Source: Novakomyces olei (taxonomy: Eukaryota). From it: a stretch of 64,000 nucleotides of DNA. The notes beneath the pieces are model-generated. The model saw only the letters and a list, made by a program, of their open reading frames with translations, ran no database searches and had not been told where the DNA came from. Within the stretch, counting starts at the first letter, position 1. The number at the start of each line of letters is the position of its first letter. The translations under genes and the position numbers were made by a program. The stretch is from positions 1,178,001 through 1,242,000 of the forward strand of contig JADEYG010000002.1 in NCBI GenBank assembly GCA_016906335.1, in the 5' to 3' direction. Below, piece by piece: positions 15,493-37,344 of the stretch.

Positions 15493-18400
15493 ATGCAGGC
15501 TACGAACAACAGCTCTAGTCGGCCGAGTCGCCGTAGCGCACCAATCGAAGGCTTTAAGCCCGCCTTTCTTGATTTGGCCTCGCGCCCTCGCTTTGACCAT
15601 TCGCCTTTACCTTCAAGCGCTTTGCCCTCTACCAACTATACTTCGCTGCCTGCTGGATATGGCGTCACAACTGCTATTAGCAAACCTCATTTTTTCAGCA
15701 AAGACGATGCTCTTGGCTCGGTCACAGGGGTATCATTCATTATTTTTGATCAAATTTTAAGCTTATTTTTTTTTTTTTTTTTTCACTTTGACCTTTTCAT
15801 ACTAGGGACAATACTTACCCTTGAAGATGCCTAGCGAATACTATACGCAGCCTGCTCCTACGAGAAAATCCGAGGATTGGTTTGGCGATTTCAACTAGCC
15901 TGCCAATGTCCCAGAGACAATGCATCTTCCCGTCAGCTCAATCGATAAAGACAAGCCTTATTTTCAAAAGCACGTGACACAGCCAAAGAGTGGTCATAAA
16001 CGCCGAGCTCTCTCCTTCGAGTCGCGTGCTATGCGTCACCCGTCTCGGCAAAGTTCGTCATCAAAACGAAGTGCAGAGCCAAACGATGGACCAGTTGCTT
16101 TGGCGAGTAGTTCCGTTGCGGGTACGGCTTATAATGGATCAGAGCCAAGAGGCCGAGTACGGCGGAGAAGTGAGGAGGAAGAAGATGTTTACCGCAGTGT
16201 TATCGATGACTTGACTGTGAAAATCCAGCACATGCGTCGCAAAATCCGTAAACTGGAAAGCCGTGAGGCTCGACGGCTCAAACAGGATACACTGTTTGAA
16301 GTCCGTTTCCACCGTCTCGATAGTGAAAGTCGGGAAAGATTGGAGGAACTACTGCGCAATTTCACAGTCTCACTGCCCTCCAGTGCCGACATGAGTTTCA
16401 ATTCGAGTACGGCTAGGTCTGAAGATAGTGTACAGGCATCAAATTCTGGATCTTCAGCTATGATTACGCCATCTTCAGCACAACTTGGCAGACTTGTGGA
16501 AAGTAAACCGCAAACTGCTCCGGAATCGGCTGCTAGTGGATCACAATTCGATTCAGGGTTTTCGTCCATGTCTTCTGGCATGGAGGGGTATGGTGGCCGG
16601 GAAAGTACGCATTGTAATTTAGCGTCACAGATGGTGGATGATGCAGACCATAACTCTGACGTCAAAAAAGCGTATAAAATTATGTTGATGATCGAGATTG
16701 TCCTTTCCGAAGTAGCTACCGGCACCGACAGGGCGGTCGAGAGAGAAGTGCAAAAGAAGCCACACAGACAATTTAACCAGGAGGGCACGGAAAAGTCGTT
16801 TGGCGAAGCTTTACCATCCCCAAAGCCCGGCTTTCCACCCTTAAAAGTTCGGCTGAGCCTGGAGAAGCAAGAGAGTTTGAAGAAAATTGGCCTGCTCATC
16901 CCCTCGTTGCTGAACGGGGTGTACGAACGTTCCCTATCACCTTCTGGCCCGAGCTGGCTCGATCTCGCTTCAGTATGTGCAATTGCAAAGTCTTGCAATA
17001 TCAGCCTTTGCGAGTCGGATTTGCGTAACGCAATCTTGCGGTTTAGCAGGTCTCTCATCCTGAGTGCCGACAATAAGAGCGTGCGGTACGCAGGAACGCC
17101 CTTTGAGACAACCGGGTCAGCGGCCACTGACTCGAGAGGGTCAATGAGCACATACACTGGCGGCAGCAGCAGCAGCGGCGGCTTTTCCGATACGCAAAGG
17201 GCAAGAAGCCGTGTGCAACAACAGCCAAATGAACAAAAACCCCAGCCTGGAAATAAAAAAGACAGTACTCCCTTTGCCGTTAACGAAGCCGGCAGCCATG
17301 GAAGAGCCTCTCCACGATCAGCCTTGTCCGGAGCCGATGGAGGCAATCCCGTCATATACACTCCAGTACTGGCAAAATCTCAGCGGTCAGCTTCAACGCT
17401 GTCCGACACCGATTCTGGTTTCTCTGACAACGATGAAGAGGGTGCAGCGGCAGCGGCTACAGACACACACAGATCGTCGATAGACGCTCGTGTTTCAAAT
17501 GGCGGTGGCCCAGTAGTGTTTTTCAACTGCGGCCAGTTTTGTATAGACTTGTCGAGGCAGCCGGTCTCGCCACACGCACGGAGGTACTCGCCCGAGTATG
17601 AGCGGGTCTTTGTTGAAGAGCCATTAGGCTCTACAACACAGTCTCCTTTGCATTTAGCAGCTACCAGCGAGAAGGCAGGTGCCTTTCCCTTGCCCTTGCC
17701 CTCTACTTTTCCCTTTCTACCACTGACGCAGTCCGGTGTGGACGAGAGCCAGTTTGTACTTGTACCCGAGGCAGACGAGAAGCTGTGTGAAGTGAGGAAG
17801 CGAGCCTCCTTGGAGAGCAATTTCAAAGAGCCCAAAGAGCCCTACGCTCTTGCCGGCTTCAGTTTTCCTCCGCTCGAGTCTGGAGCCGTGGACACTCGCT
17901 ACATGCAGTCACTGCCGATGCAGGCTTACGGGACCTGTCTCCTCGTTGACCATCTCCAGTTCCATGTCGTTGACGAGTACTGCAAGATCCCAGTGGAGAC
18001 ATCTAGTGCTCATGTAATGGACAACCGAGTGCACAACGAGTTTCTTGCTGACAAGGGTATAAGGCATATGGTTTACGAGTACAGACTGGCGAATGCCTCG
18101 AGGCACAGGTTCGTTTTCCGTCAGCTGTTCAGTCTGCTGTTTCTGCTCCCGTCCTCTACGGGAGCAGCACTTGCCTCTGCAGCAAAGCGGCCCGTCTCCC
18201 TGGCCGAGCTGAGACAGGACTCGGACGGATCGCTGAGCGATGGGTTTGACTCGTTTGGATCCAGTGCTGCTTTAGAGGCAAAGCCGGACAGCAGCATCGA
18301 CTGTGATGCTCACAGTACACTGCCTGCAGGTCCTTTGGCTCCTATAGTGCCTTTGGCTCCTATAGTGCCTTTGGCTCCTATGGCTCCTATGGCTCCTATG

Positions 18401-19084
18401 GCTCCTATAGCCAATCGTGTAGGAAGCACGTCCAGTCGCAACGAGTATATCGACTCGAGCAAGCGGGACAGCGGGTCAATGACAGACATGGAAGTAGAGT
18501 CCTGCTCCTCTTCTTCTCAGCAGTCACTGTCCCTTCAGCCAAAGGCCGCTGATCGAGCAGTGCCAGTGGACAGGACAGCCACGACACAGAGCTCGCTTTC
18601 GTCTTCAAGGCAAAGCCGCAATATCCACGAGACACTGCTGGGCAAACTGGCACGTGAAAACAGCAAAAGGCAACAGCCGACTAGTCAGACTCTTGTTACA
18701 CACGAGAGCCTTGAACGGACGCCGACAGAGTCCTTTGGTGAAGGCGGTAGTGACCACTCCTCGGATTATTACGTGTCGGGCGCTCTGGCGGACAGGGTTT
18801 GTCCTCCAGACGCGAGTCTAATGCCCTCGAGTGCTGTTGAGAGCGGCCGAGATGGAGATAGTGCGGGAGAGCCTCCGAGTCTGCTCTCCAACATTGACGC
18901 AATGCGCCAGTTTAGGGATATAATGGGCCAGAGAGTCGTGCAAGCATCTCTGCAGTTTTCTCAGCAATGGACAGAGTCTCTGCATTTGCGGCCGACGCCA
19001 ACTGCCGCTCAACAAGGGCCGAACGAGACGGACGCAAGCATTGATGATGGATTTGACAGTAATGCCAGCGAGCGGTCTGCTTAG
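15493..19084 (+). CDS. frq: FREQUENCY circadian clock protein homolog. Uninterrupted ORF 15920-19084; upstream exon 15493-15729 and intron 15730-15805 are in frame but separated by TAG at 15896-15898
   Basis: FRQ motifs: PYFQK, YRSVIDDLTV coiled coil, LFEVRFHRL...LEELLRNF, LSADNKSVRY, GPVVFFNCGQFCIDLS, DHLQFHV. Ser-rich and largely disordered. Confidence 0.88.
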
Positions 19085-19267
19085 GGGGGTTTGTTTATTC
19101 CGGCAAAAGGTTTATGATGTTTATAATGATGATGGTGATGATGGTGATGATGATGATGATTAATGGTTGTGATTCGGTTTGCATCAGATTGAATCATACA
19201 AATACTATAATTTGGGTAGCATAAATAGCACATTATAATTACACCTTGGGTGATATTATACTTTGCA

Positions 19268-19786
19268 AGGGCGGTCTAGTAGATTAAGTTGGCTGACAAG
19301 GCAATTATTTGACAGTTATTTAGATTGGCCAGTAGATTCAAGTTGGCTAACAAGGCAGTTAATTTGACAGTTGTTTAGATTGGCCAGTAGATTCAAGTTG
19401 GCTAACAAGGCAGTTAATTTGACAGTTGTTTAGATTGGCTACTTTTAGATTGGCCAGTAGATTCAAGTTGGCTAACAAGGCAGTTAATTTGACAGTTGTT
19501 TAGATTGGCTACTTTTAGATTGGCCAGTAGATTCAAGTTGGCTAACAAGGCAATTAATTTGACAGTTGTTTAGAGTGGCTACTTTTAGATTGTCTACTTT
19601 TAGATTGGCCAGTAGATTCAAGTTGGCTAACAAGGCAATTAATTTGACAGTTGTTTAGAGTGGCTACTTTTAGATTGTCTACTTTTAGATTGGCCAGTAG
19701 ATTCAAGTTGGCTAACAAAGCAGTTAATTTGACAGCTGTTTAGATTGGCTACTTTTAGAGTGGCTAGTTTAGATTGGCTAGGGTTA
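19268..19786. repeat. Composite minisatellite: 55-nt unit x~7 interleaved with 15-nt TAGATTGGCTACTTT subunits, between convergent frq and aconitase 3' ends
   Basis: Units start at ~19268 (degenerate), 19321, 19376, 19446, 19516, 19601 and 19686. Confidence 0.95.
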
Positions 19787-19890
19787 TGGTTAGTAACGTT
19801 AACAAGTAGCGCTACTCAGGGTTAGGGTTATCATAAACATGAAGGCTGCAACAATCCTTCTCCTGCAGCACACAGCAGTCTAATCACTAT

Positions 19891-22869
19891 TTAAGCCAAT
19901 ATTTCAAGCTCGCTGATGCGCAGGACAGTGTACGGCTGTTTCTGTGGCACTGTGCGAATGTGCCGCCGCCTCTTTCGGTGGTTAATTTTTAGAATAAACT
20001 TTGACTTTGTCTGCTCAATCACAGTAGCAGTACAGCGGTACAAGCTCTCGCTGATAAAAGGCTTTCCGTGCAGCGTAAAGTCGCGCGTACCCAGCCGCGT
20101 TGCCTGTGTGAATCTGATACGCTGTCCCACACGGACTCTGCCACGTAAACGTACCGGCAGCGTTACTTGGTCGCCCCGGGTCACCATATACTTTTGCGAG
20201 TGCAGTTTTACCACAATGTACGGCTGCGGCTGTGCACGCATCCGCTCCAAGGCGCGCCTCAACGCCTCCTGAGCACCCGTGTCTCTTTCAGTACCCGTGT
20301 CTCTTTCAGTACCCGTGTCTCTTTCAGTACCCGTGTGCCTTTCAGTACCCGTGTGCCTTTCAGTACCCGTGTCTCTTTCAGTACCCGTGTCTCTTTCAGT
20401 ACCCGTGTCTCTTTCAGCTCTGGCGGCAGTGTGCATCTGCCTTTTGGCCAAATTGGCTGCTTGTGGAGCACTACCGACTCGCTGCGTTTGGGCACGGTTA
20501 CGGATACTATTCAGCGCGGAACCGGCGCGGAAAAACTCGAGCTGATCGGGCGACATTGTATGCTGTACCGGGATGGTAAACTCCACCTTATTTCCGTCAC
20601 GTTCACCTTCCACACATAAGGACACGGGCCCCGTGCCCTTATTGACAAGGCTAACGAGCCCGAGTGTACGCACCCGGTCTCCGGCACGGAGCACATCAAA
20701 GTCCGCCTCGTTGGCAAACGTGAGAGGCAGCATTCCCTGCTTTTTCAGGTTTGTTTCATGGATACGGGCAAAAGATTTTGCCAAAACTGCTTTGCCATTC
20801 ATAGCCCTGGGCTGTAAGGCAGCATGCTCTCTCGCACTGCCTTCGCCATAGTTGTGCTCTGCCACAACCAGCCAGGGCTGGCCACGGTCTTTTAACCGCC
20901 ACAGCCAGTCTGGAATCGAGAGCTTTTCTCTTGTGTTTGCCTCCGAATCATAGGCAGTATTAACCTCTCCCGTCTCTGCGTTTACGGCACCGATAAGCGT
21001 ATTGTTGCAAATATTGCTCAAATGGCCCTTGTACTTGAGCCATTTTCCGGCTGCTGAAATATGGTCAGTCGTGCACTTGCCTTTTACCCTCAGTGCCACT
21101 ACCAGATCCAGCTCTGCACCCGTCCAGGCGGGGAAAGGCTGCAGCAACTCGAGCCGGTCGCTGGCCGGATCCACCGCCACAATGACACTCGCGTCCCCTG
21201 ACGCAGGCGCAGCAGCCGGCAGGTAAGCAATATTGCCAGCATCAAACCCGGCACTCGGCAGTTGCGTGCCCCGCGGTGGGCGGAAGCGGAACTCGCTGCC
21301 GTCCGGAGCCACAAGGGAATCATTCACCGGATCAAAGCCCAAATCAGAGGCAAATATCTTGGCCGCCACTATCTCGGGACTGGCTAAAAAATTCATTGTC
21401 TTGGCATTGCCGTCGTTACGGGCCCGGAAATTACGGTTGAAGGAGGTCAGGATAGCATTGGTTCCTTGCTCGCTCTCGTCGGGTTTTCCGTCGGGTTTTC
21501 CATCGGGTTTTCCGTCGGGTTTTCCGTCGATTTTTCTGTCCCACATGCCGATACAGGGCCCACAAGCGTTGGCCAGCACGGTTGCGCCTGCCTCACGGAG
21601 CTGTGCGGTTAGGCCGTCGCGTTCAATAGTAGACCGGATCTGTTCCGATCCGGGCGTAACCAAGAACGGCGTCTTTGCCTTTAGGCCGGCAGCGGTTGCC
21701 TGGGCAACCACGTCAGCCACACGAGTCATATCTTCATAGGAGGAATTGGTACAGGACCCAATCAGCCCGGCGCTGAGCTGCTGAGGCCACTTGTTGGCCT
21801 CAATCGCTTTGCGAAAGCCGCTGAGAGGCGTTGTCAAGTCAGGCGTAAAGGGCCCATTCACGTGCGGCTCTAACCGGCTCAAATCTACATGGATGACATC
21901 ATCGTACTCGGCTCCCTCGTCGGCAGTGAGGTAGTTGTGGTCCGTGTGAGCTTTACGTGCCGCCTCTGCCACTGGCGCTCGTCCCGTAGAGTGCAAGTAA
22001 GCTTCCATGCTGCCGGTAAAGGGAAACACGGAGGTGGTAGCGCCAACTTCTGCACCCATATTGCACACTGTCGCCATCCCCGTGGCACTCAGCGTCTCCA
22101 CTCCAGGGCCACAGTACTCGAGGATTCGGCCAGTGCCGCCACGGACGCTTAGCCGGCCGGCGAGAGTGAGAATGAGATCCTTGGGCGCTGCCCAGCCGGA
22201 CAGCTGCCCCGTCAAATGCACTCCAACGACTTTAGGGCATTTAAGCTCCCACGGGGTCGCTGTCATTGCGTCAACGGCATCGGCTCCTCCGACGCCGATG
22301 GCAATCATGCCCAGTCCACCGGCATTGGGAGTGTGAGAATCCGTGCCCAGCATCAAGCCGCCAGGCGCAGCATAGTTCTCAAGCACAATCTGGTGGATAA
22401 TACCCGAGCCAGGGCCCCAAAACTGTATACCGTAGCGGCGAGCACAGGACTGTAGGAAATCAAAGATCTCCTGATTGCTGGCAATCGCGTCCCGCAAATC
22501 TTGAGCGCCTCCTTCCCGTCCAACGATAAGGTGGTCGCAGTGGATTGAGGCATCCACGAGCGTCCGATCGAGACCACAGGTCATAAATTGTAAGAGTGCC
22601 ATCTGTGCAGACGCGTCCTGCATTGCCACTCGATCAGGGCGCAGTTTCAAGTAAGACTCGCCACGCGGAGCGGCAGCTGCTTCGGACGAGTCCCACAGGT
22701 GGGCAAACAGGATTTTTTCCGCCAGCGTCAGCCGCCGCGGGCCAAGTACTCGGCGAACTTGAGCCAATTTGGCTCCCAGCCGTTTGTAGGGAGGCGTAAT
22801 GCGCCCATAGTCTGGCGCCGGCGCCAGCTGCGCCATTGAGCGGGCACCGCTGCGTGAAAGAGCCTGCAT
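19891..22869 (-). CDS. ACO2: Mitochondrial aconitase-family protein (Aco2/homocitrate dehydratase type) fused in frame to C-terminal mitoribosomal protein bL21m
   Basis: DRVAMQDASAQMA, HCDHLI, GTDSHTPNAGG, GSCTNSSYED, ACGPCIG, WLKYKGHL (Aco2-type K). The last ~115 aa (YIVVKLHSQKYMVTRGD...GTRDFTLHGKPFI...YTVLRISEL) match the bL21/Mrpl49 pattern. Confidence 0.93.
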   Translation of the reverse strand: MQALSRSGARSMAQLAPAPDYGRITPPYKRLGAKLAQVRRVLGPRRLTLAEKILFAHLWDSSEAAAAPRGESYLKLRPDRVAMQDASAQMALLQFMTCGLDRTLVDASIHCDHLIVGREGGAQDLRDAIASNQEIFDFLQSCARRYGIQFWGPGSGIIHQIVLENYAAPGGLMLGTDSHTPNAGGLGMIAIGVGGADAVDAMTATPWELKCPKVVGVHLTGQLSGWAAPKDLILTLAGRLSVRGGTGRILEYCGPGVETLSATGMATVCNMGAEVGATTSVFPFTGSMEAYLHSTGRAPVAEAARKAHTDHNYLTADEGAEYDDVIHVDLSRLEPHVNGPFTPDLTTPLSGFRKAIEANKWPQQLSAGLIGSCTNSSYEDMTRVADVVAQATAAGLKAKTPFLVTPGSEQIRSTIERDGLTAQLREAGATVLANACGPCIGMWDRKIDGKPDGKPDGKPDGKPDESEQGTNAILTSFNRNFRARNDGNAKTMNFLASPEIVAAKIFASDLGFDPVNDSLVAPDGSEFRFRPPRGTQLPSAGFDAGNIAYLPAAAPASGDASVIVAVDPASDRLELLQPFPAWTGAELDLVVALRVKGKCTTDHISAAGKWLKYKGHLSNICNNTLIGAVNAETGEVNTAYDSEANTREKLSIPDWLWRLKDRGQPWLVVAEHNYGEGSAREHAALQPRAMNGKAVLAKSFARIHETNLKKQGMLPLTFANEADFDVLRAGDRVRTLGLVSLVNKGTGPVSLCVEGERDGNKVEFTIPVQHTMSPDQLEFFRAGSALNSIRNRAQTQRVGSAPQAANLAKRQMHTAARAERDTGTERDTGTERDTGTERHTGTERHTGTERDTGTERDTGTERDTGAQEALRRALERMRAQPQPYIVVKLHSQKYMVTRGDQVTLPVRLRGRVRVGQRIRFTQATRLGTRDFTLHGKPFISESLYRCTATVIEQTKSKFILKINHRKRRRHIRTVPQKQPYTVLRISELEILA
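20273..20417 (-). repeat. Coding 18-nt repeat x8 (ERDTGT/ERHTGT) in the aconitase-bL21 linker
   Basis: Visible array TTTCAGTACCCGTGTSYC on the + strand. Confidence 0.95.
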
Positions 22870-23500
22870 TATAGCGTTAGTTGTTGGAGCTGTAGCTCTG
22901 CTGCCTTACCGCTCTGCCACGCAGTGCCGACATTGCGTTGTGTCTGGCAATGGTTTATTTGAAAAATTGTTTTTTTATTGTTTATTATTCTTGTTTGTCT
23001 AATATTCTTTTTATTATTACTGTTTTATATTACTATTTTTTATTGCTATATTTTATTACTATGTTTTATTACTATCTCTTATTTAATTAAACCTTGGGAT
23101 TACCACCAATTGTGTCATATAATATACAAAATAATCATAGATTTAAAAGAAATTGCTGCATAAATAATTCTACGACATTTATTGCCTTTTTTTTTTCTGC
23201 CAAAGTTGCACTTGAAATTGTACCGTCGGCAGCTTTTATACGTAGTTTTAAAGGATTAGTACTCGTGTGTATGGTGGAAATAAATCTGTCTGACTGAAAC
23301 AGCGAACCACATTGAGCCTAACAATAGACAGTGAATAGACAATGAGAATAGTAGCAAAGCACAGTAAACCAGTTGACAGCTGCTGGCATTGCTGGCAAGA
23401 ATAAGGAAGGGCGCCTTGTCTAGAAGGAAAATTATCGATGTTAGGCTACAAGGGAAACAACGATAATGGAATATTGACGTTATTACTGTGCAGTTGGCAG

Positions 23501-23711
23501 TATTATATAGTGTACAGCTTATTATATAGTGTACAGCTTATTATAGTGTACAGCTTATTATATAGTGTACAGCTTATTATATAGTGTACAGCTTATTATA
23601 TAGTGTACAGCTTATTATATAGTGTACAGCTTATTATATAGTGTACAGCTTATTATATAGTGTACAGCTTATTATATAGTGTACAGCTTATTATATAGTG
23701 TACAGCTTATA
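23501..23711. repeat. 19-nt tandem repeat (TTATATAGTGTACAGCTTA) x~11
   Basis: Directly visible, in the divergent intergenic region. Confidence 0.95.
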
Positions 23712-23949
23712 CAGATGTAAAGTGCAGTTTAGTGTTTTTGGCTTTTGGTGCTATTACCGTCTCGAGTTTAGCGTAACGCGGTCCCCTTCAGTTGGGACGC
23801 ACTCGGCTTACTTTTGTTTGGCCAATGAAGTGGTGTGGCGGCGAGTAAACTACGGTTGTATAGTCGTGTCGCAACTTTGCTGGGCCCACAGTTACTGGCG
23901 TCAGGCATTGCTGTTGGACTGATAGCTGCAGCCATATGATCAGGGCACA

Positions 23950-24424
23950 ATGAGCTACCTCGTTCAAAGGATCCCGAACCGTGGCAATATGGCTCGCGAT
24001 CTAATGGCACTGGAACGGACGTACCTTTCGTGGATTCGGCAGGCTGTTTTATGCTGTACAGTCGCACTGTCAATGTACTCGGTCTTTGAAATTCAGGTCT
24101 ACACTGCCGCGTTTCCCGGGATGGCTCGCGCTATTCACGCCGTTACTTGTTCGTTTGCTGCTCTTTCAGCTCTAATGGCGATTCATTCACTGGAAAGGTA
24201 TTTGCTCTCGCGCTTTGCTTGGTGTCTCATGCGTTAGGTACATTGTGTCGGAGCCAATTCTCATTGAGCAAAACGTTTTCACCTATTTTCCCCTCGCAAT
24301 AATCGGTCTTGCGGCTTTGCTTTTAATGGTAGGCGTATCTGGTTTCGTTGCTGACCTAGAGATGGATGTTGCCGTGTTCATTCTTGCCGTATTCTCGACT
24401 AATAGCTTGCACGAAACTTTATAG
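23950..24424 (+). CDS. DUF202 (YidH/Vtc1-like) small membrane protein; intron ~24198-24237, possible second short intron
   Basis: IPNRGNMARDLMALERTYLSWIR motif followed by three hydrophobic segments. Confidence 0.75.
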
Positions 24425-25069
24425 CCTCCTAGTGCTCCTGTGGATTCGAGCCCAATCGGCTTGGGAGCGCCGTGTGACTGGCTGGGGCTATGTTTGATCG
24501 CGCTGATGCGCTAGCGTTCCAATTTGGGGTTAGCTGATTGCCTCAGATATAGTTTCTTCAGAGATTCAGAGATGTACATTTTCTACACTTTTTGTTTTTG
24601 TCTGTATATTGTTTTGGTCTATTTGTTTTGTCGGTTGGTTGGTTGGTTGGTTTGCTTGACGGTGTCTAGATTCGCATTTTGTACAGCAACGATCCGGGTT
24701 TGCTCGTGTTTTACTTTTAAAATGTTTTAATCGCAGCAGTAAATGTTTAACGCTTTAACCAGAATCCCTCTATATTATGACGAAAATTATATATATATAT
24801 ATATGAATGCATTGAGCCGACACTCCACAATCATCCATGCGGCTGATTTAACAGGTATGAGACTATTACCGAAAACACAAGCATAAAGCACAGTTTGCAG
24901 CAGTCGTCGGAATCTCCATTTCCTCACTCAAATCCCAAATGAAATGGTTCTCCCCCACCGCCTGCCTACTCCCTTCCCAGGCCAGCTTGGCGTAGCAGCC
25001 TTTGGCAAACGTCCCTGGACTATTGCCATTTGAGAGCTTGAAAACTCAATAAGAGTAACTCTTCCTTGT

Positions 25070-26722
25070 TCACCGACCTTGAACCCGGCGCACCTTTTTC
25101 CACCAATCAGGCTCAAAATTCTCGCCGTAGTTGATCCAGTCGGGTAAGAACCGGTGCACGCTGCGTTTGAACGCCCACGTTTCTGGTCTGCCATCCCACG
25201 CCCAAAACTGGTGGTTAGAATTAATCTTGATATAGAGATGGAAAGTGAGACGCGTAGCCCAATCTTGAAGGCTTGTTGCCGCGCATTGAACAATGTAACA
25301 GGGTAAAAAGAGCAGAACAAAATGAGGAGCGAATAAAATTAAGGAGCGAACAAAATAAAGAGCAAACAAAAACAAAGAGCAAACAAAAACAAAGAGCAAA
25401 CAAAAACAAAGAGCAAACAAAAACAAAGAGCAAACAAAAACAAAGAGCAAACAAAAACAAAGAGCAAACAAAAACAAAGAGCAAACAAAAACAAAGAGCA
25501 AACAAAAACAAAGAGCAAACAAAAACAAAGAGCAAACAAAAACAAACACATATACGTGACTTACGAGAGGGGGAATAATTGTAAAAGACTTCAACTTTCC
25601 AGCAGTAATATGCTGCAAAATGCTAATATCCAATTTGAAAGGAAGCCATTCATTCAGTTCAATGAGCATACTGCGAGCTGCGCTCTGAGTAAACACGTAG
25701 GCGGTAGCGCACAGCGGGTTGCGCGACCGGACAATAAGCCGGCGAGGGGTTCGATCGTGAAAGTACTTCTCCAGAATCTCGTACACCCAGTCGACCGAGA
25801 AAGGCTGAACGTTTTCCCGGTCAGCGGGCACTTCCTGGTACACTTCCGACATGGGCAGCCCACGGACACGCTGTTCGCCGTGCTCAAAAGGCTGTTCATA
25901 GCAAGCGCCCAAGTGCAGCATGTCCCACAGAGGATAGGTAAACGCAGAGTCAATGTCGCCACTGACACGGCGGAGAACAGGGCGCAGCTGAGTAACGATA
26001 CGGCGTATATTCAAGTCAAAATCCACATCGCCTTCCAGGACAAGAGCATTGGGCAAATTTAGCTGCACCATTGTACGCCAGACAGCAGCATGACTTAGGA
26101 ACTGGGCATAGTCAGATCCCTGCATGCCCATTGCTGCCGTATCAACTGCGTCAGGAAGGGCATTCGTGTCTGAAGCTGCTGCCGCCGGTGGCACTGCTGG
26201 CACTAGCGTCACATTGAGCCCAGCAGCAGACGCAGACAGCACCATATCGTCCACCAGATCCGGCCGCAGAGTATCGTATATTACGTATATCGCAGAAAAC
26301 CCTAAGGTTGAGTTCGACAGGGGAAGAATGGACATATAGTCGGCCTGCTCGCTCGAAACTGCCTCGGGCTTGACGAACCGAACTTTTGGTTTTCTCGGGC
26401 CGACGACGTGCACGTCGTCGTCGGCGTCGTCAGCGTCGTACCGACGGCGAAGCCGACTGTGCACTGTGCCATTGTGGCCGAGCTCAAACATATAGAGCAG
26501 CATGCAGACTGTGACTACCACTGCCGCCAGGGAAAACGCTAGCCGCCGCTGATTACGGGCTCTCTGGAGCCACAGGGTGAAGCCTCGCCATTGCGACCGT
26601 AGCCTGTGACCTGAAGCCAGTTTTTTAGAGCTTTTGCTTTCAGAGCTGTACGGGTCCGCTCCGGGGCTGTGTACGCTCCGGCTCGAACTCTCGCCGCCAC
26701 CAAACTGCGGCCTCACGCTCAT
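25070..26722 (-). CDS. Type II membrane glycosyltransferase, GT25-like; intron 25208-25564
   Basis: N-terminal TM anchor; SNSTLGFSAIYVI, SHAAVWRTMV, ALVLEGDVDFD, WDMLHLGAC, PLCATAYVFT, IIPPL|FWAW. Confidence 0.8.
   Translation of the reverse strand: MSVRPQFGGGESSSRSVHSPGADPYSSESKSSKKLASGHRLRSQWRGFTLWLQRARNQRRLAFSLAAVVVTVCMLLYMFELGHNGTVHSRLRRRYDADDADDDVHVVGPRKPKVRFVKPEAVSSEQADYMSILPLSNSTLGFSAIYVIYDTLRPDLVDDMVLSASAAGLNVTLVPAVPPAAAASDTNALPDAVDTAAMGMQGSDYAQFLSHAAVWRTMVQLNLPNALVLEGDVDFDLNIRRIVTQLRPVLRRVSGDIDSAFTYPLWDMLHLGACYEQPFEHGEQRVRGLPMSEVYQEVPADRENVQPFSVDWVYEILEKYFHDRTPRRLIVRSRNPLCATAYVFTQSAARSMLIELNEWLPFKLDISILQHITAGKLKSFTIIPPLVSHVYVFVFVCSLFLFALCFCLLFVFVCSLFLFALCFCLLFVFVCSLFLFALCFCLLFVFVCSLFLFALYFVRSLILFAPHFVLLFLPCYIVQCAATSLQDWATRLTFHLYIKINSNHQFWAWDGRPETWAFKRSVHRFLPDWINYGENFEPDWWKKVRRVQGR
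25349..25547. repeat. 17-nt tandem repeat (AAACAAAAACAAAGAGC) x~11 inside the GT25 intron
   Basis: Directly visible array. Confidence 0.95.
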
Positions 26723-26847
26723 GGCCCAGTGTGTCTCCTGTATTATTGTCAAATTAATACGAGCATACTATTTTCACGCGAGTCGGAAAGGTTCGCACGT
26801 GGTGGATCTGTATTATATTCAGACTGCACTATGCTAACACTGTCGTT

Positions 26848-26906
26848 TTAGGGTTAGGGTTAGGGTTAGTTAGGGTTATCTTAGGTTTTATAATTAGTTA
26901 GGGTTA
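26848..26906 (+). repeat. Interstitial telomere-like TTAGGG cluster
   Basis: Three perfect tandem TTAGGG plus two more nearby. Similar clusters elsewhere (see findings). Confidence 0.85.
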
Positions 26907-27061
26907 TTATTGTCAATACTAGGGAAAAAGGCGGTAAAAGCGACGCATGGCAATGGCCAAAGAGTCGCTGCAGGTGCACAGCTGTGTACACGAGAATATA
27001 CGGATTAGGGACCTAGTTACAGTTACTACTCTACACAAAATAAACTAGTGTTTTGGCACTA

Positions 27062-28872
27062 TTATGCCTGTTTTTCCATGGCGCTCTCAGCAGTGCTTTC
27101 AGCAGGGCTCTCAGCGGTCTCCTTCCCTTGGGGGCAATATGTTCCATCTGGCTGCAGCACACCGAGTCGGTCGTACAGCGTACGTGCACGAACATACTTG
27201 TCCAGTATCCAATACTGTAATCCCAACACGCGTGCCACATTACTACGCTTTTGTGCGTGGGGCGAATCAAGTGTCGTTGACCGTTCAGAGGCCCATCTAA
27301 TAGTCAAATCCTCATATTGCTTGTAGTACGCACTGCGCTCACGCAAGATTTCATCACGGCGCTTTGTGTCCTCCTGGGCCTCGTTCTCGCCCGGCTGAGG
27401 CTCTGGGTATTCGTAGCTCCAGTTCATTGGACCACCCAGCTCCTTGATAATCTCACTAGGCTCAATAAACTTGCCGAGATCATTCAAGTTGCGAGTAAAT
27501 TGGATCTTGCTCGCCACGACAGGATCAAGCCATCCTTTAATGATATTCCAAACGCCCTGGAATACCCACGGCGCCTTGTGAATGAGCAAGACGCCAAGCG
27601 ACTCGGGGTAATGCGCTTCAAAACATTTTATTATAAAGCGTACAGGATTGTAGTCCATGTTGGCCAGCTTGTAGAGTTAGCAAAGACTTGCAACAAAAGA
27701 TTTGATGGGTAATCGTTGGCAGAGTCTTTCGTATAGCCACATCGAAATAACAACAAAAAAAAAAAAAAAAAAAAAAAACCAAATATTTTACTCACCGAAA
27801 AGTCAGTCATATCGAAAATAACGCACGCAGTGTCAACCGGAGGTTTAAGCATGAGCCTCCCCGTCTCCATTACGTAAACGGTAAACTTTTCAATCGTGGC
27901 ATCGTCCTGTTCCTTTGGTTTGTGCAGGCGGACACGCACATAGCACAGAGGCCGGCCACGTTTGTCCGTGCCGTGGAAGAAGCTTTTGCCTACACGCATC
28001 TGTTGTAGGAAAGGCTCATCCTTGTCCAATGCGCCTTCCTCGCCCGTCCGGAGAATAGCATCAACGTCAAGAACCTTGACTCGCCAATGCATAGACGCCA
28101 CCATCATGACTACAGCTTCGCCAACGTCCCATTTGCGAGCGCGTAAAAACCGAAGCAGCAGCGAATCTGGATCATCGCACTTTACCAGGCTCCAAAACGT
28201 CTGCCGCAGCTCTTCCGGAGACTGATTTTCCAAAGCTTCGAGGTACTCGAGCCGAGACTGGTACTTTTCTTCCTGTTGCAACGCGCCCACTGTACTGGCC
28301 TCACTGCGGTTTGAAGAGGCAACCGAAGTCGCAGCTGAAGTAGCGGTTGAGCCAGTATTACGTCTCAGCAGTCCACGGCGACGTCGAGCTGGACTCTTTT
28401 CTTCAGGCACTCCAAGCGTACCGTCAGAGAGCCCATAATTCGCTCCGTTTTCTTCTCCGTCTTCGCCCATTGCACGTTTACGCTCGTCAGCTGCATCAGG
28501 CCGCCCAAATATTTGCAGTACTCGGGCCCACATGTCCTTCAGAGCCTCGTTCTGCTCTACTGTTAAATGACCAGGCCTGCCTTCCGCGACCAGCGGTGCC
28601 GGCCCACTGTCGTCATCCAGACGAATTGCTCCTCCCGCACCAAAAACGAGCGGGAGCGCAGCGGCAAAGTACCAGTAGCGTGAGCTGCCATACCCTCGAT
28701 CATGGTGAGCAGTACTTTCACGGTGCCTGATCTGATCGCTGTGCGGTCTGCAAGCATACCCTACCGTCGTCGCTGCCGCTGCAGAGCCGGCAATTAGTGG
28801 CAGCGCTACGCGCCCACGCGCCACTGAGGCGCTACGCGCCGCAATTGCTGTCCGCACTGCTCCGCTAGACAT
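27062..28872 (-). CDS. CSR1: Sec14/CRAL-TRIO phosphatidylinositol transfer protein, Csr1/Sfh2-like; intron 27668-27795
   Basis: PDSLLLRFLRARKWDV, GTDKRGRPLCYVRVRLH, FDMTDFS|LANMDY, EAHYPESLG, WLDPVVASKIQFT, YWILDKYVRARTLYDR. Confidence 0.85.
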
Positions 28873-28989
28873 ACATGCCCTGCCTCTGGCGGCTGTTAAT
28901 ACAGTATCTATGATGTATACACCTAATTATAGGTACTATTCTTAACGGTGCCACTTTTATACTTTATTTTATTGTATATATACATATAT

Positions 28990-29096
28990 TTTATATATAC
29001 TTTATATATACTTTATATATACTTTATATATACTTTATATATACTTTATATATACTTTATATATACTTTATATATACTTTATATATACTTTATATA
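28990..29096. repeat. 11-nt tandem repeat (TTTATATATAC) x~10
   Basis: Directly visible, in the CSR1/HNT1 divergent promoter. Confidence 0.95.
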
Positions 29097-29318
29097 TGAT
29101 CTAACTTGATTTAATTTAATTAACTCAATTCAATTCATTTTAATAAATTAATTAATTAATTAATTAATTTAATATATACTTTGCATTATCGGTTCAAGTC
29201 TATTCCTCTTACTTGGCCGTCGACACTATTAGGGCAGTGAAGGATCCCCTCATCCACCTCACCGGCGTGTAACCCGATACTCCACGCGGCCGACCGAACC
29301 TGTCCGGAGAAGTCTACA

Positions 29319-29998
29319 ATGTCGTGCATCTTTTGCCGCATTATCAAAGGTATATTGGCTCCTTGCGGTCGTGCATTTGCTGATCCGTGTGCTTTTGCCG
29401 GTCGCTTTGCCCAATGAGAGGAGGGCAGAGTACCGGACTGGAGCATTTACAAATAGGTGAAATTCCCTCGTACAAATTGCTCGAGACGGACAAGACGTAA
29501 GCTCGGGAACGAAGACGGAAATATAATGCGATCAGCGCTAATGTCGCCAGCTACTCTTTCCTCGACATTGGTCCTCTGAGTGAGGGTCATTCTGTAGGAT
29601 ATAATGCTGACTCGCTTTGCTGATTGCCAGCTGGTTATCCCGAAAGAACACGCGCAATTCTTGCATGACCTTTCAGACGAATCACTAAAGGATATTCTGC
29701 CAGTTGCGAAGCGTCTGGCGACCGCTATTGGTGCGGAAAACTACAACATTCTCCAGGTAGGCATTGATTGGCATTACGACGCTAAAGCTAATTTCTAGAG
29801 TATGTGTGGCCCACACCGGTTTGACCATCTAACACTATAGACAATGGCCGCTTGGCACATCAGGTTGTCGACCATGTGCACTTCCATATCATTCCGAAAC
29901 CTGACCAGGCTCAGGGACTCGGGATCGGGTGGCCTACTAAGCCTGCCGACCAGACACAGCTCAAGGAGCTCGCTGAAAGGCTGAAAGAAAAACTGTAG
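29319..29998 (+). CDS. HNT1: HIT-family adenosine monophosphoramidase Hnt1; five introns including a 1-nt exon at 29799
   Basis: Spliced MSCIFCRIIKGEIPSYKL...FLDIGPLSEGHSLVIPKEH...YNILQNNGRLAHQVVDHVHFHIIPK, with the HxHxH triad. Confidence 0.93.
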
Positions 29999-30099
29999 TT
30001 TAACCAAGCACGGACTTGACAGCTTCAAGTGTTGGCTTCCTCCTAGTACTCCAACTCAGCCAGCCGAGCGTATACTTGAATATGACTGTACAATCAAAC

Positions 30100-30734
30100 C
30101 TAACTGCCCCTGACTGGTCTTGTACCCCTAAACCCACCTCGTGTAGGAGCCCCACGTCCGCGCGTTGAAGCCGTTGGTGTAGTATAACCCCTGCCACGGC
30201 CACGGCCACGCGTGCTTGCGGCAGTACGCGTTGGCACAGCAGAGGCCTGTCGCGCTGGAGGCCGTTCCACAAAGGACGCGTCGTTTGTTAAGAACGTCGC
30301 GTCTTCTTCATAGGCGTTTAAAGGTACGTGAGCGATAGGGTTTGCCGCCGCTGCGGCGGCACGGGCATCCTCAATCGTGTACCGCTCCAGAGCCCGTTGT
30401 AACGCGTCTGTGGAGGGCGCCTTTTGATATTAATGTGATTCTATCCAAACCATCATACCTCTGGGAAATCACTGCAAAAGGCGTTCATGTTGAGGCCGTA
30501 CAGGAAACTTGCAAAACTCTCGTTGAACTCTGTTAGACTGGTGGAGACCATATTGAGCAAATTCAAGTTTTCAACAACATCGGCAAAGTTGTCTGTTAAT
30601 TCGGCAAAAACAGGCTCAAAAGTGTCAAGCGGATGGCTCAAGTCTTCGGTATTGGTCCGCGATGCTGATAGTCGGCCAATTGAGCCTTTTTCAAATCGTC
30701 TTAGCGGCGTAGTCGGCCGCGAGTTACGCGACAT
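30100..30734 (-). CDS. DAM1: DASH/Dam1 kinetochore complex subunit Dam1; one short intron
   Basis: RPTTPLRR, FNESFASFLYGLNMNAFCSDFPE|AP, DATFLTNDASFV, RG-rich tail. Confidence 0.9.
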
Positions 30735-31446
30735 TGTTTGTATTTGCACGGCAACACGTGGATAAATCATTACTTTCCATAATACTTGCATTAACCCTAA
30801 CTAACCCTGTTTTTGTATTATCAACCCTAACCCTATCCGGCAGTTACACCAACTCTGCTGTGTAGCGCACGCTGATACGCGCACTCGTTTCGGTCCATGG
30901 TCTTTACGCCCTTTTCGCCGTCAAACAACGCTTATATACAAGACGGACTGCCTTTTCGCGACAGCATTTACAATTACCGTATTATGTTTATTATATTTGC
31001 CAGTTGACTCGTCGTCGCCATAGACTGTAACAAAAATCCAAAAAATACAGCAACACCCAATCGTCTATGAGCCAAACGTCTACGGGCCAAAGCATATTTA
31101 AAATATGAATACAGTGTAACTACGAGAGCAAACAACACAGCCCGGTCTCTGCGAATGATGAAACCATAAATGTACAGAATCGCTGATGGCCCTGTAAAGC
31201 CTTTGCCGTATACTGAGCGAAAACGTACGTATCGGCCCTATCGCAAGCGCTACAATAATATTTACGAAAACCCTGTAATTTTCTTGTGTGGGGGCCGAGC
31301 ACTGCCCACCGATAAGCAATGGCCCCCACCAGCAATGGCCCCCACACAACGATATAAATAGACGCTCGCGCACAGCCGCAGAGTAATCGCCGACCTGTCG
31401 ATTGCAGTACTGAACCCGTATCGAGCATCGTCCGTCCAACATACAA

Positions 31447-32775
31447 ATGGCAAACACCGATCCCGGATACCAAAAGGACGCCAATGCGTTGCGGCCAGAC
31501 TTGCTAGAGTACCTCGATCCTGTATATATAAAGCATCACAACACCCATCAAGGTACGCAGCCCGGGACAGGCTTGTCAGTGCTACTTTTGCTATTCTCTT
31601 GCATGCTCTTTCAATCTATCGCCACCTTCAATCTTTGCCACTTTTAATCTAATACCGCTTTTTCAATCTATCGTCACTTTCAATCTATCGTCACTTTCAA
31701 TCTATCGTCACTTTCAATCTAATGTCACTTTCAATCTATCGTCACTTTCAATCTAATGCCGATCTATTGCCAATCTATTGCCAATATGCTAACTCGTCTA
31801 GTCGACAGGCTTATGGCCCACCAGGTGCCTTATGAAGAATTTGCACGCAACGAGAGCTTTTATCGGGTCAAGGCCGGAGTAGAGCCAGTCGAGTCCAAAC
31901 ACGCTGTCCGGCACGAGCGGGTTCCTGTAACGCACCCCGACATGGATATCGGCGTGGACGTGTATACCCCACCCGGCGACGGGCCTTTCCCCTGCCATAT
32001 TAACCTTCACGGAGGCGGATGGGTCATTGGCGGACTGGAGGACGATGCCCAGTGGTGCCGCACTATTACGGTCAAGGCAGCCTGTGTCGTAGTCAACGTC
32101 GACTACCGTCTGGCCCCCACTTACCCTTTCCCCACAAGTAATCGTGACTGTGTGGTGGCCCTGCACTACGTGTTGGACAATGCGGAGCGGCTAAAAGTTG
32201 ATGCCTCCCGTATCTCTGTCGGTGGCCTCTCTGCGGGTGGACATTTAGCCGCCTTTATCTCAATCTACGCTCGCGACAACAATATCCCGCTTGTACTGCA
32301 AATGCTCACGGTACCCGTGTGTGACGTGAGATACATACCTGTGTCACGTGAACAAGGTGCCTTGAAGGAGGCTAAAAACCCGTACAAGAGCTACCATTTG
32401 TTTGAGCATGCGCCTTGCTTGCCTCTGGCCCGAATGCAATGGTTTGCTGATCTCTGGCTGGGCACGAGCCCAGAGGCACGTGCTCAAGCAGAGTCGTGGG
32501 AGGCGAGTGTTATTACCCACCCTGACTTGCGCAACGTTGCTCCTGCCATTTTCTTGATTGCCAACGTTGATCCCCTGCGAGACGAGGCTCTCGCTTACGC
32601 GGAGAAGCTGAAGGAGGCAGGAGTGCCTACTGACGTGCACGTGTTTGAGGGGGTACCACATCCTTTTGCTCACTGGACGGCCGTACTGGACCAGGCTCGG
32701 CAGTACAATGAAATCACAATCAACGCTCTAAACAAGGCTTACTACCACGAGTCGCCAGACAAGAAGGAGGAGTAG
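31447..32775 (+). CDS. Alpha/beta hydrolase, HSL-like esterase/lipase; intron 31553-31801
   Basis: HGGGW, VDYRLAP, GLSAGG nucleophile elbow, DPLRDE, HPF. Confidence 0.9.
31611..31785. repeat. 17-nt tandem repeat (CAATCTATCGTCACTTT) in the esterase intron
   Basis: About 9 perfect or degenerate copies visible. Confidence 0.9.
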
Positions 32776-33569
32776 TCGTCTCGTATACGTAGGGAATTAT
32801 AAAGCACGGATCACTCTATAGCAATTTAATGTACTCTCCTTTGAAATTTGGCCAGTTAGGGTCGAGATTGGACACTCGCAAGATTTGAATACAAGTTTAG
32901 GGTTAACAAGTGTAGGGTTAACAAGTGTAGGGTTAATCTTGGGGGTTAATCTTGGACCAAGACGGAGCACATTCTGTGCCGTTGCCGTCCGCTAAACCCG
33001 GCATACGTCGAGTAATGCAATTCTTGTAAAGTGTCACATTAATGTACAAATCCAGTCCCATCATGCATAGTTTCTAAATACATTGTATAATTCCAAGAAC
33101 AGCGTCGTCAATATCGCCAAACAGACTACCTGTGCCGAGCAGAATAATCGTCCAAACTACCTTTAAAATGCATCGTCTATTACATTGCTCATACATATTG
33201 CACACAATCTTTCGGCGGGTAACATTGCCAAGCAGAAAAATTTTGGTCACCTCAAAACCCGTACACACACAGAAAGAAGATACAAATAGAATAAAATTAA
33301 AAAAAATGAAAAATAAAAAATAAATATAAAAAACAAATATAAAATTAAAATTAAAATTAAAAATAAATAATAAAAAATAATAAATAAATAAAAAAAAAAC
33401 AAATACAAATACAAATACAAGTACAATACAAGAAAATGGTAATACTAAAGAAAAGAATTATAGAGGCAAAAACTACGATCCAAAGTAGCCGTAGACACAA
33501 TAGCGGTAAGCTGGTCCAAACATTTTGTACAACGACAAAAACGCTTCACGCAATCCAGGAAAGGTGGGC

Positions 33570-36394
33570 CTAATTCTTTGAGGAAGTATTCACCCAGTAC
33601 TCGGCGTCCCCCGGGCTATCAGACCCCCGTAGCCTCGAGTCGTCTGTCGTGGCCAGAGGCGAAGCCGTTGAGGCCAGACTGCTTGTAGCAGTACCACTAG
33701 CGGCACTAGCGCTAGCGGCACCACCCCGCCGAGCATTATTACCAGCCCCGGCTGTTTCAGTATCAGGACTGGCACTGCTATTCCTGCTAGAACCGTTGCC
33801 CTTACTTCCTCGGCGCTGGAGCACCATCAGCTTAGCCAAACGCAGTCCGCAGCTGTTGCACAAGGAATGCTTTCCGTCCGGATCGCGTCGCCACTCGGGC
33901 GTCTCACTGCGCCCACAGTTTGCACAAACACGATTAGACTGCCTTTGGTGCCGTACCTGCTGGTGACGGATATTGTTGGAGGTAATTCCATCAATTTCCT
34001 GCTGTAATCGCCGATTGGCCAGCCGCAGATGCTGAATCTCATACTGCCAGCTGGTGGACCGTGTGGCTTCCAGCTCCATGTATATACTCTCATCAAGACT
34101 ATGCTCCTCAACGCTCATTGACCGCAGCTGCGGCCTGACAAAGGCAACATGCTTCGACATTCCGGCTGCTGAAGCCGAGTCCATCAGGCTCTTGGGCAGT
34201 TGGCTCACTGGCGAAGCTTTGGATCGTGAGTCAGGGAGTGCCGCAGTACTATCCGCATTTGCCTCACTCAGCTTTCTTCCTGGTTCCCCATTGGCCGCCA
34301 GTTCTTGTTCAACGGAAGGGTTCATTTCTCTACAGCGCATTATTATCGTACGCACACTACTGCTCAATGGCTTGTCAGAGTCAGGGTAAAGGGTTGTCAG
34401 TACTTCAACGCTCTTGCCACTTTTACAGTTCAGCAGGTGCCGGACGTTTACTATCTTGCCCCGCCGAGCTCGTCGGAGAGCCTTGTCAATTCTTTCTTCG
34501 CCCTCTCCACGTGAAACTTCTTTTACATTGAGACCGTACAAGTCTCGACTCTCAAAGTCAATGAAGCGACTGCACGTAGACGCAACAAAGAGCATTATTC
34601 CATCCGCTGAAATCTTGGCCCAAAACTCATTCTCCTGTATCTGCGATTTTTGCAAGACATCACGCCATGTGAGCGAGACAAGAGGCCGCTGCCTGCCAGC
34701 AAGAACTATACATTTACGGCCTCGTCCAGGCTCAATATTGAGCCGCCCTACGCTCTCGAGCCACATGTAGCTCGAATTCTTGCGATGGACACGAAACAGA
34801 AAGCTTACCGCGTCACTGCTCGAAGACGCGTCCCTTAGAATTCGCATTACAGAGACAATATCGCTCGGGTGGCAGATGGAGGATAAGCCCAGGCCAGTTA
34901 TTTCGTCCGACTCGTACTCCAGGATATTGCGACAGGAGGGAGAGGCGTACAGGATAACGCCTTTCAGAGAGAGAATATAAATAAAATCATCCGCCTGCTG
35001 TAAGACTGCCTCGTACTCTTTGCCTCCAGACATGGATACGTTCATCGGCGATTTGCCGTCTGTCCGTGCATCGCGCCGTTTCCGTTTCGTTTGGAATTGG
35101 GGCAGCGGCTCCAGTTCTTTGGGGAACGACGTCATTTGGTAGTTGACGGCGTACGTGCCATCTAATCGTTAGCCGTGGGAAAAGTAGGGAAACAGAAATA
35201 GAATAAATTAACGAGAAAGAATCAAGATAAAAGCTATCAACGAAGATTCGATGGACAACAAGACAGACAGGCAATGCACAAATCGAATTCCAGATATAAT
35301 AAACAAAAACAATGATACACGCAATACGTACCCTTCATACGGTTCATAATAGACTCTGGCTGCTCGACTAAATCAACCTGAAACCCCACGAAAAACGAAA
35401 CCTCTCCGTCAATATGGGTGCTGACGGGGATAATAGTGAGCAAATTTATAAAAGGCTGTCCAGATTTGCGATAGTTTATAAGCGACACTTGAGCCTCATC
35501 ACCAACATTTTGCTGATGTTTGAGAAAGGATACGGCACTTTCGTCGGTGTATATCCGTTTTGAGCCCTTTGTGACATTACCATCTGGTGCTTGCAGAAAT
35601 CGGCAATTCTTCCCCACAATCTCATCCATAGTGTAGCCCGTTAGCTTTTCAAAGTTAGGGCTAGCATAAACAATTGGAAAATCGGGTTCCCGGGCGGAAG
35701 AAACAACAAACGAACAAGACATGTCGACCGGACCAATATTGATTTTCGGGTCCCGACGCATTGCTACTCGCATCTAAAAATTAGTACTATAAAACCGTCC
35801 GCCAAAACTTACGAGAATGCCCAACAGATCAAACCCGGTAGAGGAGTACATGCCTGCAAACCCTGGCCGATCAAGACCCAATGGCTGAGCGACATTCTGA
35901 GCCCCGTCAATATGTAAATTCTGCTTTTTTTGCTGCTGCTGCTGCTGCTGCTGTTGTTGCGTATGCAAATCAACACCTTCAGTAAAAGGCGAGTCCGGGT
36001 AAGAGCTTTGCCGGCTCAATAGAGCGTCTGAAGTAGCAACGCTCGACTCCTCGTCCTGCACGCCTGCACGAACAGCAGACGCGATGGGCCGCCTGTACTG
36101 CATTTTTAAAGGATCACGGTCAGCTGAGTGCGTCGCGGGCAGAGTATGATCGTCGTGGGCGGAAAGGCTGTCACGCTGATTGTTGGTAAAGAACGGATTA
36201 GCACTCGGCCCATCGTCTTCAAAATTCTCAACAAACAACGAAAAGTCTTCATCCTCGGCACTGCCGTCGCCCACAGTCGGATCGGGAGCAGCGGCAATGC
36301 CGAAGCCGTCTCGGAGACTCCGATCGGGTTCCTCTCCGTCGCTGCCGCTGTTGGCAGCGACAGAGAAAATCTCGTCGGCTGATAAATTCAGCAT
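33570..36394 (-). CDS. wc-1: White Collar-1 blue-light photoreceptor/transcription factor (LOV, PAS-B, PAS-C, GATA zinc finger); introns 35774-35812 and 35162-35331
   Basis: YSSTGFDLLGIL|MRVAMRRDPKINIGPVDMSCSF, GKNCRFLQ photo-cysteine motif, INYRKSGQPFINLLTIIP, CHPSDIVSVMR, TSWQYEI, CANCGRSETPEWRR...LCNSCGLR, poly-Q. Confidence 0.96.
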
Positions 36395-37268: not shown

Positions 37269-37344
37269 ATATAATATAATATAGAAATAATATAAATATA
37301 AATACAATTTATATTGCGTCAGTTTAAAAGTGTCGGCCGCGAGT

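Follow-up and report, generated by a model that had tools for sequence, protein, structure and literature searches.

A divergent frq homolog and a predicted wc-1 gene 14.5 kb apart in Novakomyces olei

The FRQ homolog and WC-1

The stretch of DNA analysed here, 64,000 nucleotides of contig JADEYG010000002.1 of Novakomyces olei (referred to below as the window), carries homologs of frq and wc-1, the same two gene families as in the FRQ/White Collar Complex (WCC) oscillator of Neurospora crassa and, as in that species, both on one chromosome. frq lies on the forward strand and wc-1 on the reverse strand, in convergent orientation, and 14,485 bp separate the two stop codons. The preliminary description of this DNA had proposed an FRQ homolog ending at 19084 and a complete WC-1 ending at 33570, convergent and about 14.5 kb apart, and in these points our analysis agrees with it. 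The ATG at 15493, which it took as the start of frq, lies upstream in a different frame and would require a candidate intron. As to the seven unrelated genes that it placed in between, they are indeed unrelated to the pair, but the count has to be amended to six genes with a Pfam match and a few open reading frame (ORF) stretches without one.

The main frq frame (15899-19084, +) is open throughout its 1061 codons and, counted from its first ATG, gives a coding region 15920..19084 (+) of 1054 amino acids. It matches the Pfam family FRQ (PF09421) with an E value of 1.6e-20 (73.4 bits, cut-off 26.6), the match being confined to the coiled-coil part of the profile. A custom FRQ hidden Markov model (HMM), built on nine Pezizomycotina FRQs with the window sequence excluded, was run against 15300-19090 in all three forward frames, their stops being masked. 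It matched this frame alone, at E 6.8e-35, the match falling into two colinear parts, one at profile positions 104-264 and the other at 446-673. All 21 matches obtained at E <= 1e-3 in a FRQ homolog search carry PF09421. HMMER run without filters on 1.84 billion cluster representatives retrieved 310 proteins at E <= 1e-3, 68 at E <= 1e-10 and none at E <= 1e-30, and the closest representative displays 29% identity across query residues 15-583. A profile search with a second FRQ alignment retrieved 19 Pezizomycotina FRQs, none of them among the closest cluster representatives. In a protein-language-model atlas three FRQ clusters rank first, with a score of 0.82 that serves as a lead only, and in a 10-row alignment the window protein shares 17-22% identity with the other FRQs. 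Judged by its sequence, the gene is a real FRQ homolog, very divergent and very isolated.

As in N. crassa, this FRQ combines a coiled-coil block with conserved blocks downstream. The coiled coil (residues about 91-155, +), recognized by alignment and by Pfam, retains R99, V101-T106, F133, E134, H138 and L140, which are invariant in all ten rows of the alignment. The alignment delimits two further blocks on the same strand. The FCD2-like block (residues about 350-400), aligned with the GWVYLNLL...DGRKVRW consensus, has conserved W353, L356, A363, S389 and D391, the first three being invariant. The FCTDLSGD-like block (residues about 537-552), aligned with GPIIFYN..FCTDLSGD, has invariant G537, F547, D550 and L551. 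A conserved island, Y487/P489, lies between them. FCD1 and FCD2 we take to be the CK1-interaction motifs of FRQ.

When residues 88-172 were modelled in two copies, a register-parallel dimer was predicted, with contacts over residues 91-126. The model scores 0.45, the best of three controls reaching 0.01; its runs agree in at least 55% of contacts and the predicted local distance difference test (pLDDT) of the partner is at least 70. The pass mark applied is reached by 21/30 structures of same-chain pairs and by 0/23 single-chain ones and, on eukaryotes, by 17/29 same-chain pairs against 0/30 single chains. The model supports a predicted homodimeric pairing of FRQ through its N-terminal coiled coil.

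Two minor features of the frq frame concern regions outside these blocks. A candidate in-frame intron in the insertion around 18056 was rejected, having neither branch site nor pyrimidine tract. At 18331-18408, a 9/18-bp coding repeat produces the peptide run PLAPIVPLAPIVPLAPMAPMAPMAP, in a region without counterpart in other FRQs.

On the opposite strand, wc-1 (36394-33570) is predicted to consist of three exons, which once spliced form 2616 nt without internal stop and encode 871 amino acids. Exon 1 (35813..36394, -; 194 codons from ATG 36394) contains a run of 11 Q. In exon 2 (35332..35773, -) lies the LOV domain (PAS_9, 5.6e-19), which contains both NCRFLQ and a long flavin loop of the fungal type. 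Exon 3 (33570..35161, -) encodes PAS-B (PAS_3, 2.1e-11), a weak PAS-C and the GATA zinc finger (5.5e-14, residues 415-446 of the exon), and ends with the stop. The closest solved relative of the LOV domain is Neurospora VVD (2.1e-32), and the alignment crosses the cysteine motif NCRFLQ and the flavin loop without a gap. The match of the PAS-C region to PAS_4 (E 0.055, 14.1 bits) stays under the cut-off of 23.1. In the atlas, the nearest named clusters carry the titles 'White collar 1 protein family' (score 0.98) and 'Blue light photoreceptor BLR1' (score 0.97). On this sequence evidence, the gene is a complete WC-1. Poly-Q, LOV with NCRFLQ and long flavin loop, PAS domains and C-terminal GATA finger reproduce the architecture of the N. 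crassa protein, with 871 amino acids here against 1167 there (PMC9144814). A Pfam scan of 36 + 23 ORFs of the 64-kb window detected no second PAS-GATA gene.

The two introns measure 39 nt (35774-35812, GTAAGT...ACTAAT...TAG) and 170 nt (GTACGT...GCTAAC...TAG). The shorter one is in frame, and naive read-through would meet a stop codon inside it. Upstream of wc-1 and on the same strand, at 38321-41725 (-), lies a 1135-codon Myb ORF (Myb_DNA-binding 3.1e-20, Myb_DNA-bind_7 4.7e-08).

The frq 5′ end and upstream region

Directly before the main frq ORF stands an in-frame TAG (15896-15898), the first ATG of the ORF following at 15920. In the frame of the main ORF, a segment that ends in this TAG (the WF segment, 15806..15898, +) was recognized as FRQ N-terminal sequence from its letters and from the profile alignment. 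Read across the TAG, its peptide (15806-15895) is colinear with FRQ profile positions 72-104, running from the KWFDqSN to the DnDPPFF motif. This alignment scores 5.3 bits, a value equalled by 0/500 shuffles (319 of which were reported, with a maximum of 1.1). By this alignment, FRQ homology extends upstream past the TAG. The WF motif precedes this codon; the PPF-type motif follows it, as does the main ORF's first ATG. Neurospora frq has two start codons, and the one for its short form presumably occupies a comparable position between the WF and PPF-type motifs.

Further upstream, a candidate frq exon of 79 codons (15493..15729, +), proposed from the sequence only, opens at ATG 15493 in another frame. 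A putative 169-nt intron, GT(15730)...AG(15898), would join it in phase to 15899. Different explanations of the TAG are possible. It could be a sequencing error or a strain-specific nonsense change, or a stop codon that is read through. Alternatively, the downstream ATG alone could be used, giving a short form only, or a transcript from ATG 15493 could be spliced from 15730 to 15898 and skip the WF segment.

The gap upstream of frq is long for such a compact window: it runs from the end of the previous ORF (13575) to the first ATG of frq, at 15493 or 15920. This region makes up 3.7% of the window and contains 9 of its 93 GATCG/CGATC sites, as well as two of its four clusters of at least three GATCG sites within 40 bp. 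The Neurospora WCC binds GATC-type repeats. About 1.7 kb upstream of frq, the cluster GAGATCGGGTAGATCGATCGG (14221-14241) groups four GATCG/CGATC sites, spanning 14223..14240, and is a candidate GATA-factor (WCC-type) element. Another candidate WCC-type element, TCGATCGCGAGATCGA (14797-14812), is located about 1.1 kb upstream of frq and is near-palindromic (TCGATC-GCGA-GATCGA, 14798..14812). The clustering of GATCG sites in this region is modest, and we consider it as a lead only. A 34-bp tandem array (14584-14703) sits between the two GATCG clusters.

Source lineage, linkage elsewhere and the meaning of the spacing

The lineage of the window was approached through one of the genes located between frq and wc-1. 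This gene encodes, in one frame of 1004 codons (19894..22905, -), a mitochondrial aconitase of Aco2 type fused to the ribosomal protein bL21 (Pfam Aconitase 3.4e-140, Aconitase_C, Ribosomal_L21p 2.6e-14). Its top matches are proteins of Schizosaccharomyces japonicus (67% identity) and S. cryophilus (66%), both of them aconitase/ribosomal-protein fusions, and the next ones come from Taphrina (65%), Savitreella (66%) and Saitoella (64%). Nothing in the protein collection exceeds 67-68% identity, and the bL21 domain occurs in only 3 of the 120 aconitase matches listed. For the tree, 23 rows were picked from these 120, namely the named ones and the five best unnamed matches, and the window row was trimmed to its first 830 residues. 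It falls inside a Taphrinomycotina clade with a support of 99 in the Shimodaira-Hasegawa-like approximate likelihood ratio test (SH-aLRT), with the Schizosaccharomyces fusion proteins as its sister (SH-aLRT 94), on a long branch (0.55) that makes the placement unsure. According to this one-gene tree, the source would be a member of Taphrinomycotina related to fission yeasts, in line with the early-diverging ascomycete of the preliminary description. The one-frame fusion resembles Aco2-bL21m (Mrpl49) of Schizosaccharomyces, from which it differs by two tandem peptide repeats in the linker. Such a fusion may not be unique to the clade, since the N. crassa gene table gives one gene both names, mrp-57 and aconitate hydratase (PMC4169166 Table S1).

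Vertical inheritance of frq into this lineage is to be expected, because the gene has been reported to predate Dikarya (PMC9508176). If it descended vertically and was lost many times, its occurrence in Taphrinomycotina is no exception. The open-access literature, as far as its texts were available and with subscription journals outside this coverage, yielded no report of frq in Taphrinomycotina. Fission yeasts themselves, to our knowledge, have neither frq nor wc-1. What the window presents belongs to a known clock system, with an unusually tight gene arrangement, and is not a new kind of system.

Linkage of the two genes in other fungi was judged from published locus tags, and a distance in tags is not a measured physical distance. 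In N. crassa, frq (NCU02265) and wc-1 (NCU02356) are 91 tag numbers apart, whereas 14.5 kb separate them here. We take N. crassa wc-1 to be on linkage group VII. frq has been mapped to that group (PMC3140994), and around it the tags follow the map order, as indicated by the flanking markers oli (NCU02250) and for (NCU02274); physical coordinates of the two genes were not found in open-access text. The interval amounts to 178 tag numbers in Sordaria macrospora (SMAC_03705 and SMAC_03527) and to 96 tag steps in Botrytis cinerea, where bcfrq1 (Bcin02g08360) and bcwcl1 (Bcin02g07400) share chromosome 2. Botrytis thus provides a second class with linkage, roughly ten times looser in gene number than the pair of the window. 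It is a filamentous Leotiomycete with a demonstrated functional clock, whereas in the window lineage a clock would be a prediction from its genes. By these tags, frq and wc-1 are on one chromosome and at moderate distance in two sister classes; at least one further lineage, and probably three, has them apart. The open-access texts contain, in their accessible parts and with subscription journals again outside the coverage, no statement of this linkage, nor of the two genes being about 90-100 genes apart on one chromosome in Neurospora and Botrytis.

We suppose, tentatively and at somewhat less than an even chance, that the 14.5-kb spacing has passively survived from an ancient linkage of frq and wc-1 on one chromosome, in a lineage that retains both oscillator genes. 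An old and loose linkage of this kind is plausible. The lineage would have kept the two central genes of the FRQ/White Collar oscillator. WC-1, which would be both a LOV photoreceptor of canonical, flavin-binding type and a GATA transcription factor, would pair by homology with WC-2, whose gene is outside the window, and both would switch on frq via the GATC-type elements of its long upstream region. FRQ, in which the domain for parallel coiled-coil dimerization and two other conserved blocks are apparently retained, would in turn feed back on the WCC, with CK1- and FRH-binding motifs weakly or not conserved. The spacing would play no mechanistic role: the old linkage would have been kept short in a compact genome, while Sordariales and Helotiales would retain it loosely, at about 90-180 genes, and other lineages would have broken it.

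Besides the tag-based nature of the comparison, a series of observations weighs against this reading. The two genes are on different chromosomes in Verticillium dahliae JR2 (Chr1g01960a and Chr2g01990a), and thousands of tag numbers apart in Fusarium oxysporum (FOXG_07759 and FOXG_03727) and in Pyronema confluens (PCON_09365 and PCON_03119). The latter, whose frq was reported in 2013 as the case most distant from Neurospora (PMC3778014), belongs to Pezizomycotina, with the window lineage outside that group. Neurospora, Sordaria and Botrytis, as members of sister classes, may represent a single ancestral observation. Four window genes have N. crassa counterparts whose tags are not near the NCU02265-NCU02356 interval: coproporphyrinogen oxidase (NCU01546), U2A' (NCU06622), RNA14 (NCU09435) and the UFD1-like gene (NCU06856/NCU05582). 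The names alg14, nep1 and grc3 have 0 entries in that table. No wider conserved block is apparent, only the pair itself, because the intervening genes are unrelated and the tags of these four genes are distant.

Two neighbours in N. crassa, sec14 (NCU02263), two tags from frq, and the aconitase gene tca-3 (NCU02366), ten tags from wc-1 (PMC4169166 Table S1), were considered as shared synteny and rejected. The case of sec14 also counts against a retained linkage: the CRAL-TRIO lipid-transfer gene of the window (two exons, 27062..28926, -; Pfam) is of CSR1 type and apparently a paralog, matching PDB CSR1 (7wvt) at 4.9e-23 versus 7.7e-06 for SEC14 (1aua). As for tca-3, it is annotated just as 'aconitase', and the aconitase of the window, which also appears to be a paralog, is of Aco2 type, its best named matches including ACO2 and homocitrate dehydratase.

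Further points on the same side come from the frq locus. Compared with N. crassa FRQ, the window protein is about 20% identical, has no recognizable FCD1 or FRH-binding motif and carries a TAG in its conserved N-terminal region, which this stop interrupts. It is not conserved where the consensus KKKLVVRRLEQ aligns, and it aligns poorly over columns 970-1000, only G653 and P658 being conserved there. The SGLGGV..DNF block of these columns presumably marks the vicinity of the FRH-binding region. Concerning the putative WCC sites, GATCGA is not enriched in the whole window (23 occurrences for 24.19 expected), and the total of GATCG clusters in the window is within that of shuffled sequences (P 0.13).

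How much of this closeness calls for an explanation is a matter of rough estimation. For a genome of about 14 Mb with 4,000-6,000 genes, the probability that a pair named in advance would fall within this gap would be about 0.2-0.5%, a figure which is inflated by selection, closeness being the very reason why the pair was noted. Orthologs that are real could nevertheless have come close here, and moderately close in Neurospora and Botrytis, by unrelated accidents of gene order, and we hold this to be a serious possibility, if below an even chance. The pair was selected post hoc, the core clock set offers many pairs and many windows were scanned; V. dahliae shows no linkage of the pair, its tags in F. 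oxysporum and P. confluens are far from each other, and no other checked window gene shares the N. crassa neighbourhood. On the other hand, with the low estimate for a pre-named pair within 14.5 kb goes an independent one of about 2% for a pair within about 100 of some 10,000 genes, yet linkage at this scale is seen in two classes. The latter observation is free of the selection bias, yet may go back to a single ancestral event. Of the three readings, we give a small preference to an old linkage passively retained; pure chance comes next, and a module kept by selection follows at a clear distance. Selection would mean a clock supergene or a shared regulatory domain, with an advantage in co-inheriting matched alleles or in common chromatin control. 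The arrangement is the tightest among the species compared, the genes are convergent and the frq upstream region is long, but between frq and wc-1 stand six or more housekeeping genes, unrelated and distributed over the two strands, the region upstream of wc-1 (36395-38320) contains no GATCGA, and the linkage is readily lost in other fungi. Moreover, a shared promoter is impossible because the genes are convergent, and altogether we find selection very unlikely. The 'module' and the co-adapted alleles envisaged in the preliminary description are not supported, the intervening genes being unrelated and the pair lying in no wider conserved block. Its other proposal, ancestral synteny, is favoured by N. 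crassa, S. macrospora and B. cinerea, where the genes are on one chromosome and fairly near, and disfavoured by V. dahliae, F. oxysporum and P. confluens.

A different doubt concerns FRQ itself, which may no longer be a clock component, having been recruited for another light or developmental role or being in decay; the pair would then be uninformative on any oscillator. Its low identity to other FRQs, its isolation among the cluster representatives (none at E 1e-30, the best at 29%), its atlas score, the unrecognizable FCD1 and FRH-binding region and the TAG within the conserved N-terminus all point that way, and V. dahliae frq has been reported to be largely unresponsive to light (PMC9508176). 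Against this, no stop breaks the frame of 1061 codons, invariant FRQ residues are retained in the coiled coil and in two blocks downstream of it, and the predicted dimer passes its controls; we consider a loss of clock function rather unlikely. Equally doubtful is a bolder combination, according to which a close frq-wc-1 pair already existed in the Ascomycota ancestor, the negative and positive arms of the clock thus being inherited together, was preserved here and decayed in Pezizomycotina (about 90-180 genes apart, elsewhere lost), while the in-frame TAG, positioned like the two Neurospora frq starts, would be a built-in switch between long and short forms of FRQ.

If this lineage does run a FRQ/WCC loop, the oscillator would be placed in the subphylum of fission yeast, where it has been assumed missing, and a compact genome would be at hand for the study of a minimal, very divergent FRQ. 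Its surviving blocks (coiled coil, FCD2-like and FCTDLSGD-like) point to indispensable parts of the protein. Taken together, the tight pair described here and the linkage in Neurospora and Botrytis make an old linkage a hypothesis that can be tested with public genomes. If the closeness is due to chance, what remains is the occurrence of two known genes in a further lineage.

Intervening genes and other features of the window

Besides the aconitase-bL21 fusion and the CSR1-type gene, four genes with a Pfam match lie between frq and wc-1. They encode a DUF202 membrane protein, present as a gene fragment (23926..24237, +; 9.2e-09), a glycosyltransferase family 25-like protein (GT25; 25070..26767, -; 7.3e-08), the DASH complex subunit Dam1, of which the first exon was located (30453..30800, -; 1.1e-20), and an alpha/beta hydrolase (Abhydrolase_3) esterase (31723..32775, +; 9e-54). 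We know of no link of any of the six families to light or clock function. The few further ORF stretches of this interval, of 60-145 codons, have no Pfam match, and in the Pfam scan of small ORFs 22 of 23 gave 0 families. In the entire 64-kb window, ARAGORN detected no tRNA genes.

Repeats are frequent in and around these genes. The linker between the aconitase and bL21 contains an 18-bp repeat in 7.9 copies (20275-20417) encoding the peptide TERDTG, and a 12-bp repeat in 5.3 copies (21477-21540), encoding DGKP, lies inside the aconitase itself. Most of the DNA that separates the frq stop from the 3' end of the aconitase gene is a minisatellite of about 500 bp (19278-19781), made up of 55-85-bp units. 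Short-unit tandem arrays, with periods of 5-34 bp and up to 56 copies, occupy nearly every intergenic gap. In addition to the array between the GATCG clusters upstream of frq (14584-14703), they are found at 13818-13895, 23501-23710, 25307-25546, 28984-29097, 31608-31755 and 37009-37302.

The window as a whole contains about 30 protein-coding genes, roughly one per 2 kb. Most are housekeeping genes, among them those for Rna14, Grc3/NOL9, UFD1, RFC, HEM13, cyclophilin, EMG1, a Rad51-like protein, Alg14, thioredoxin, U2A' and GGA.

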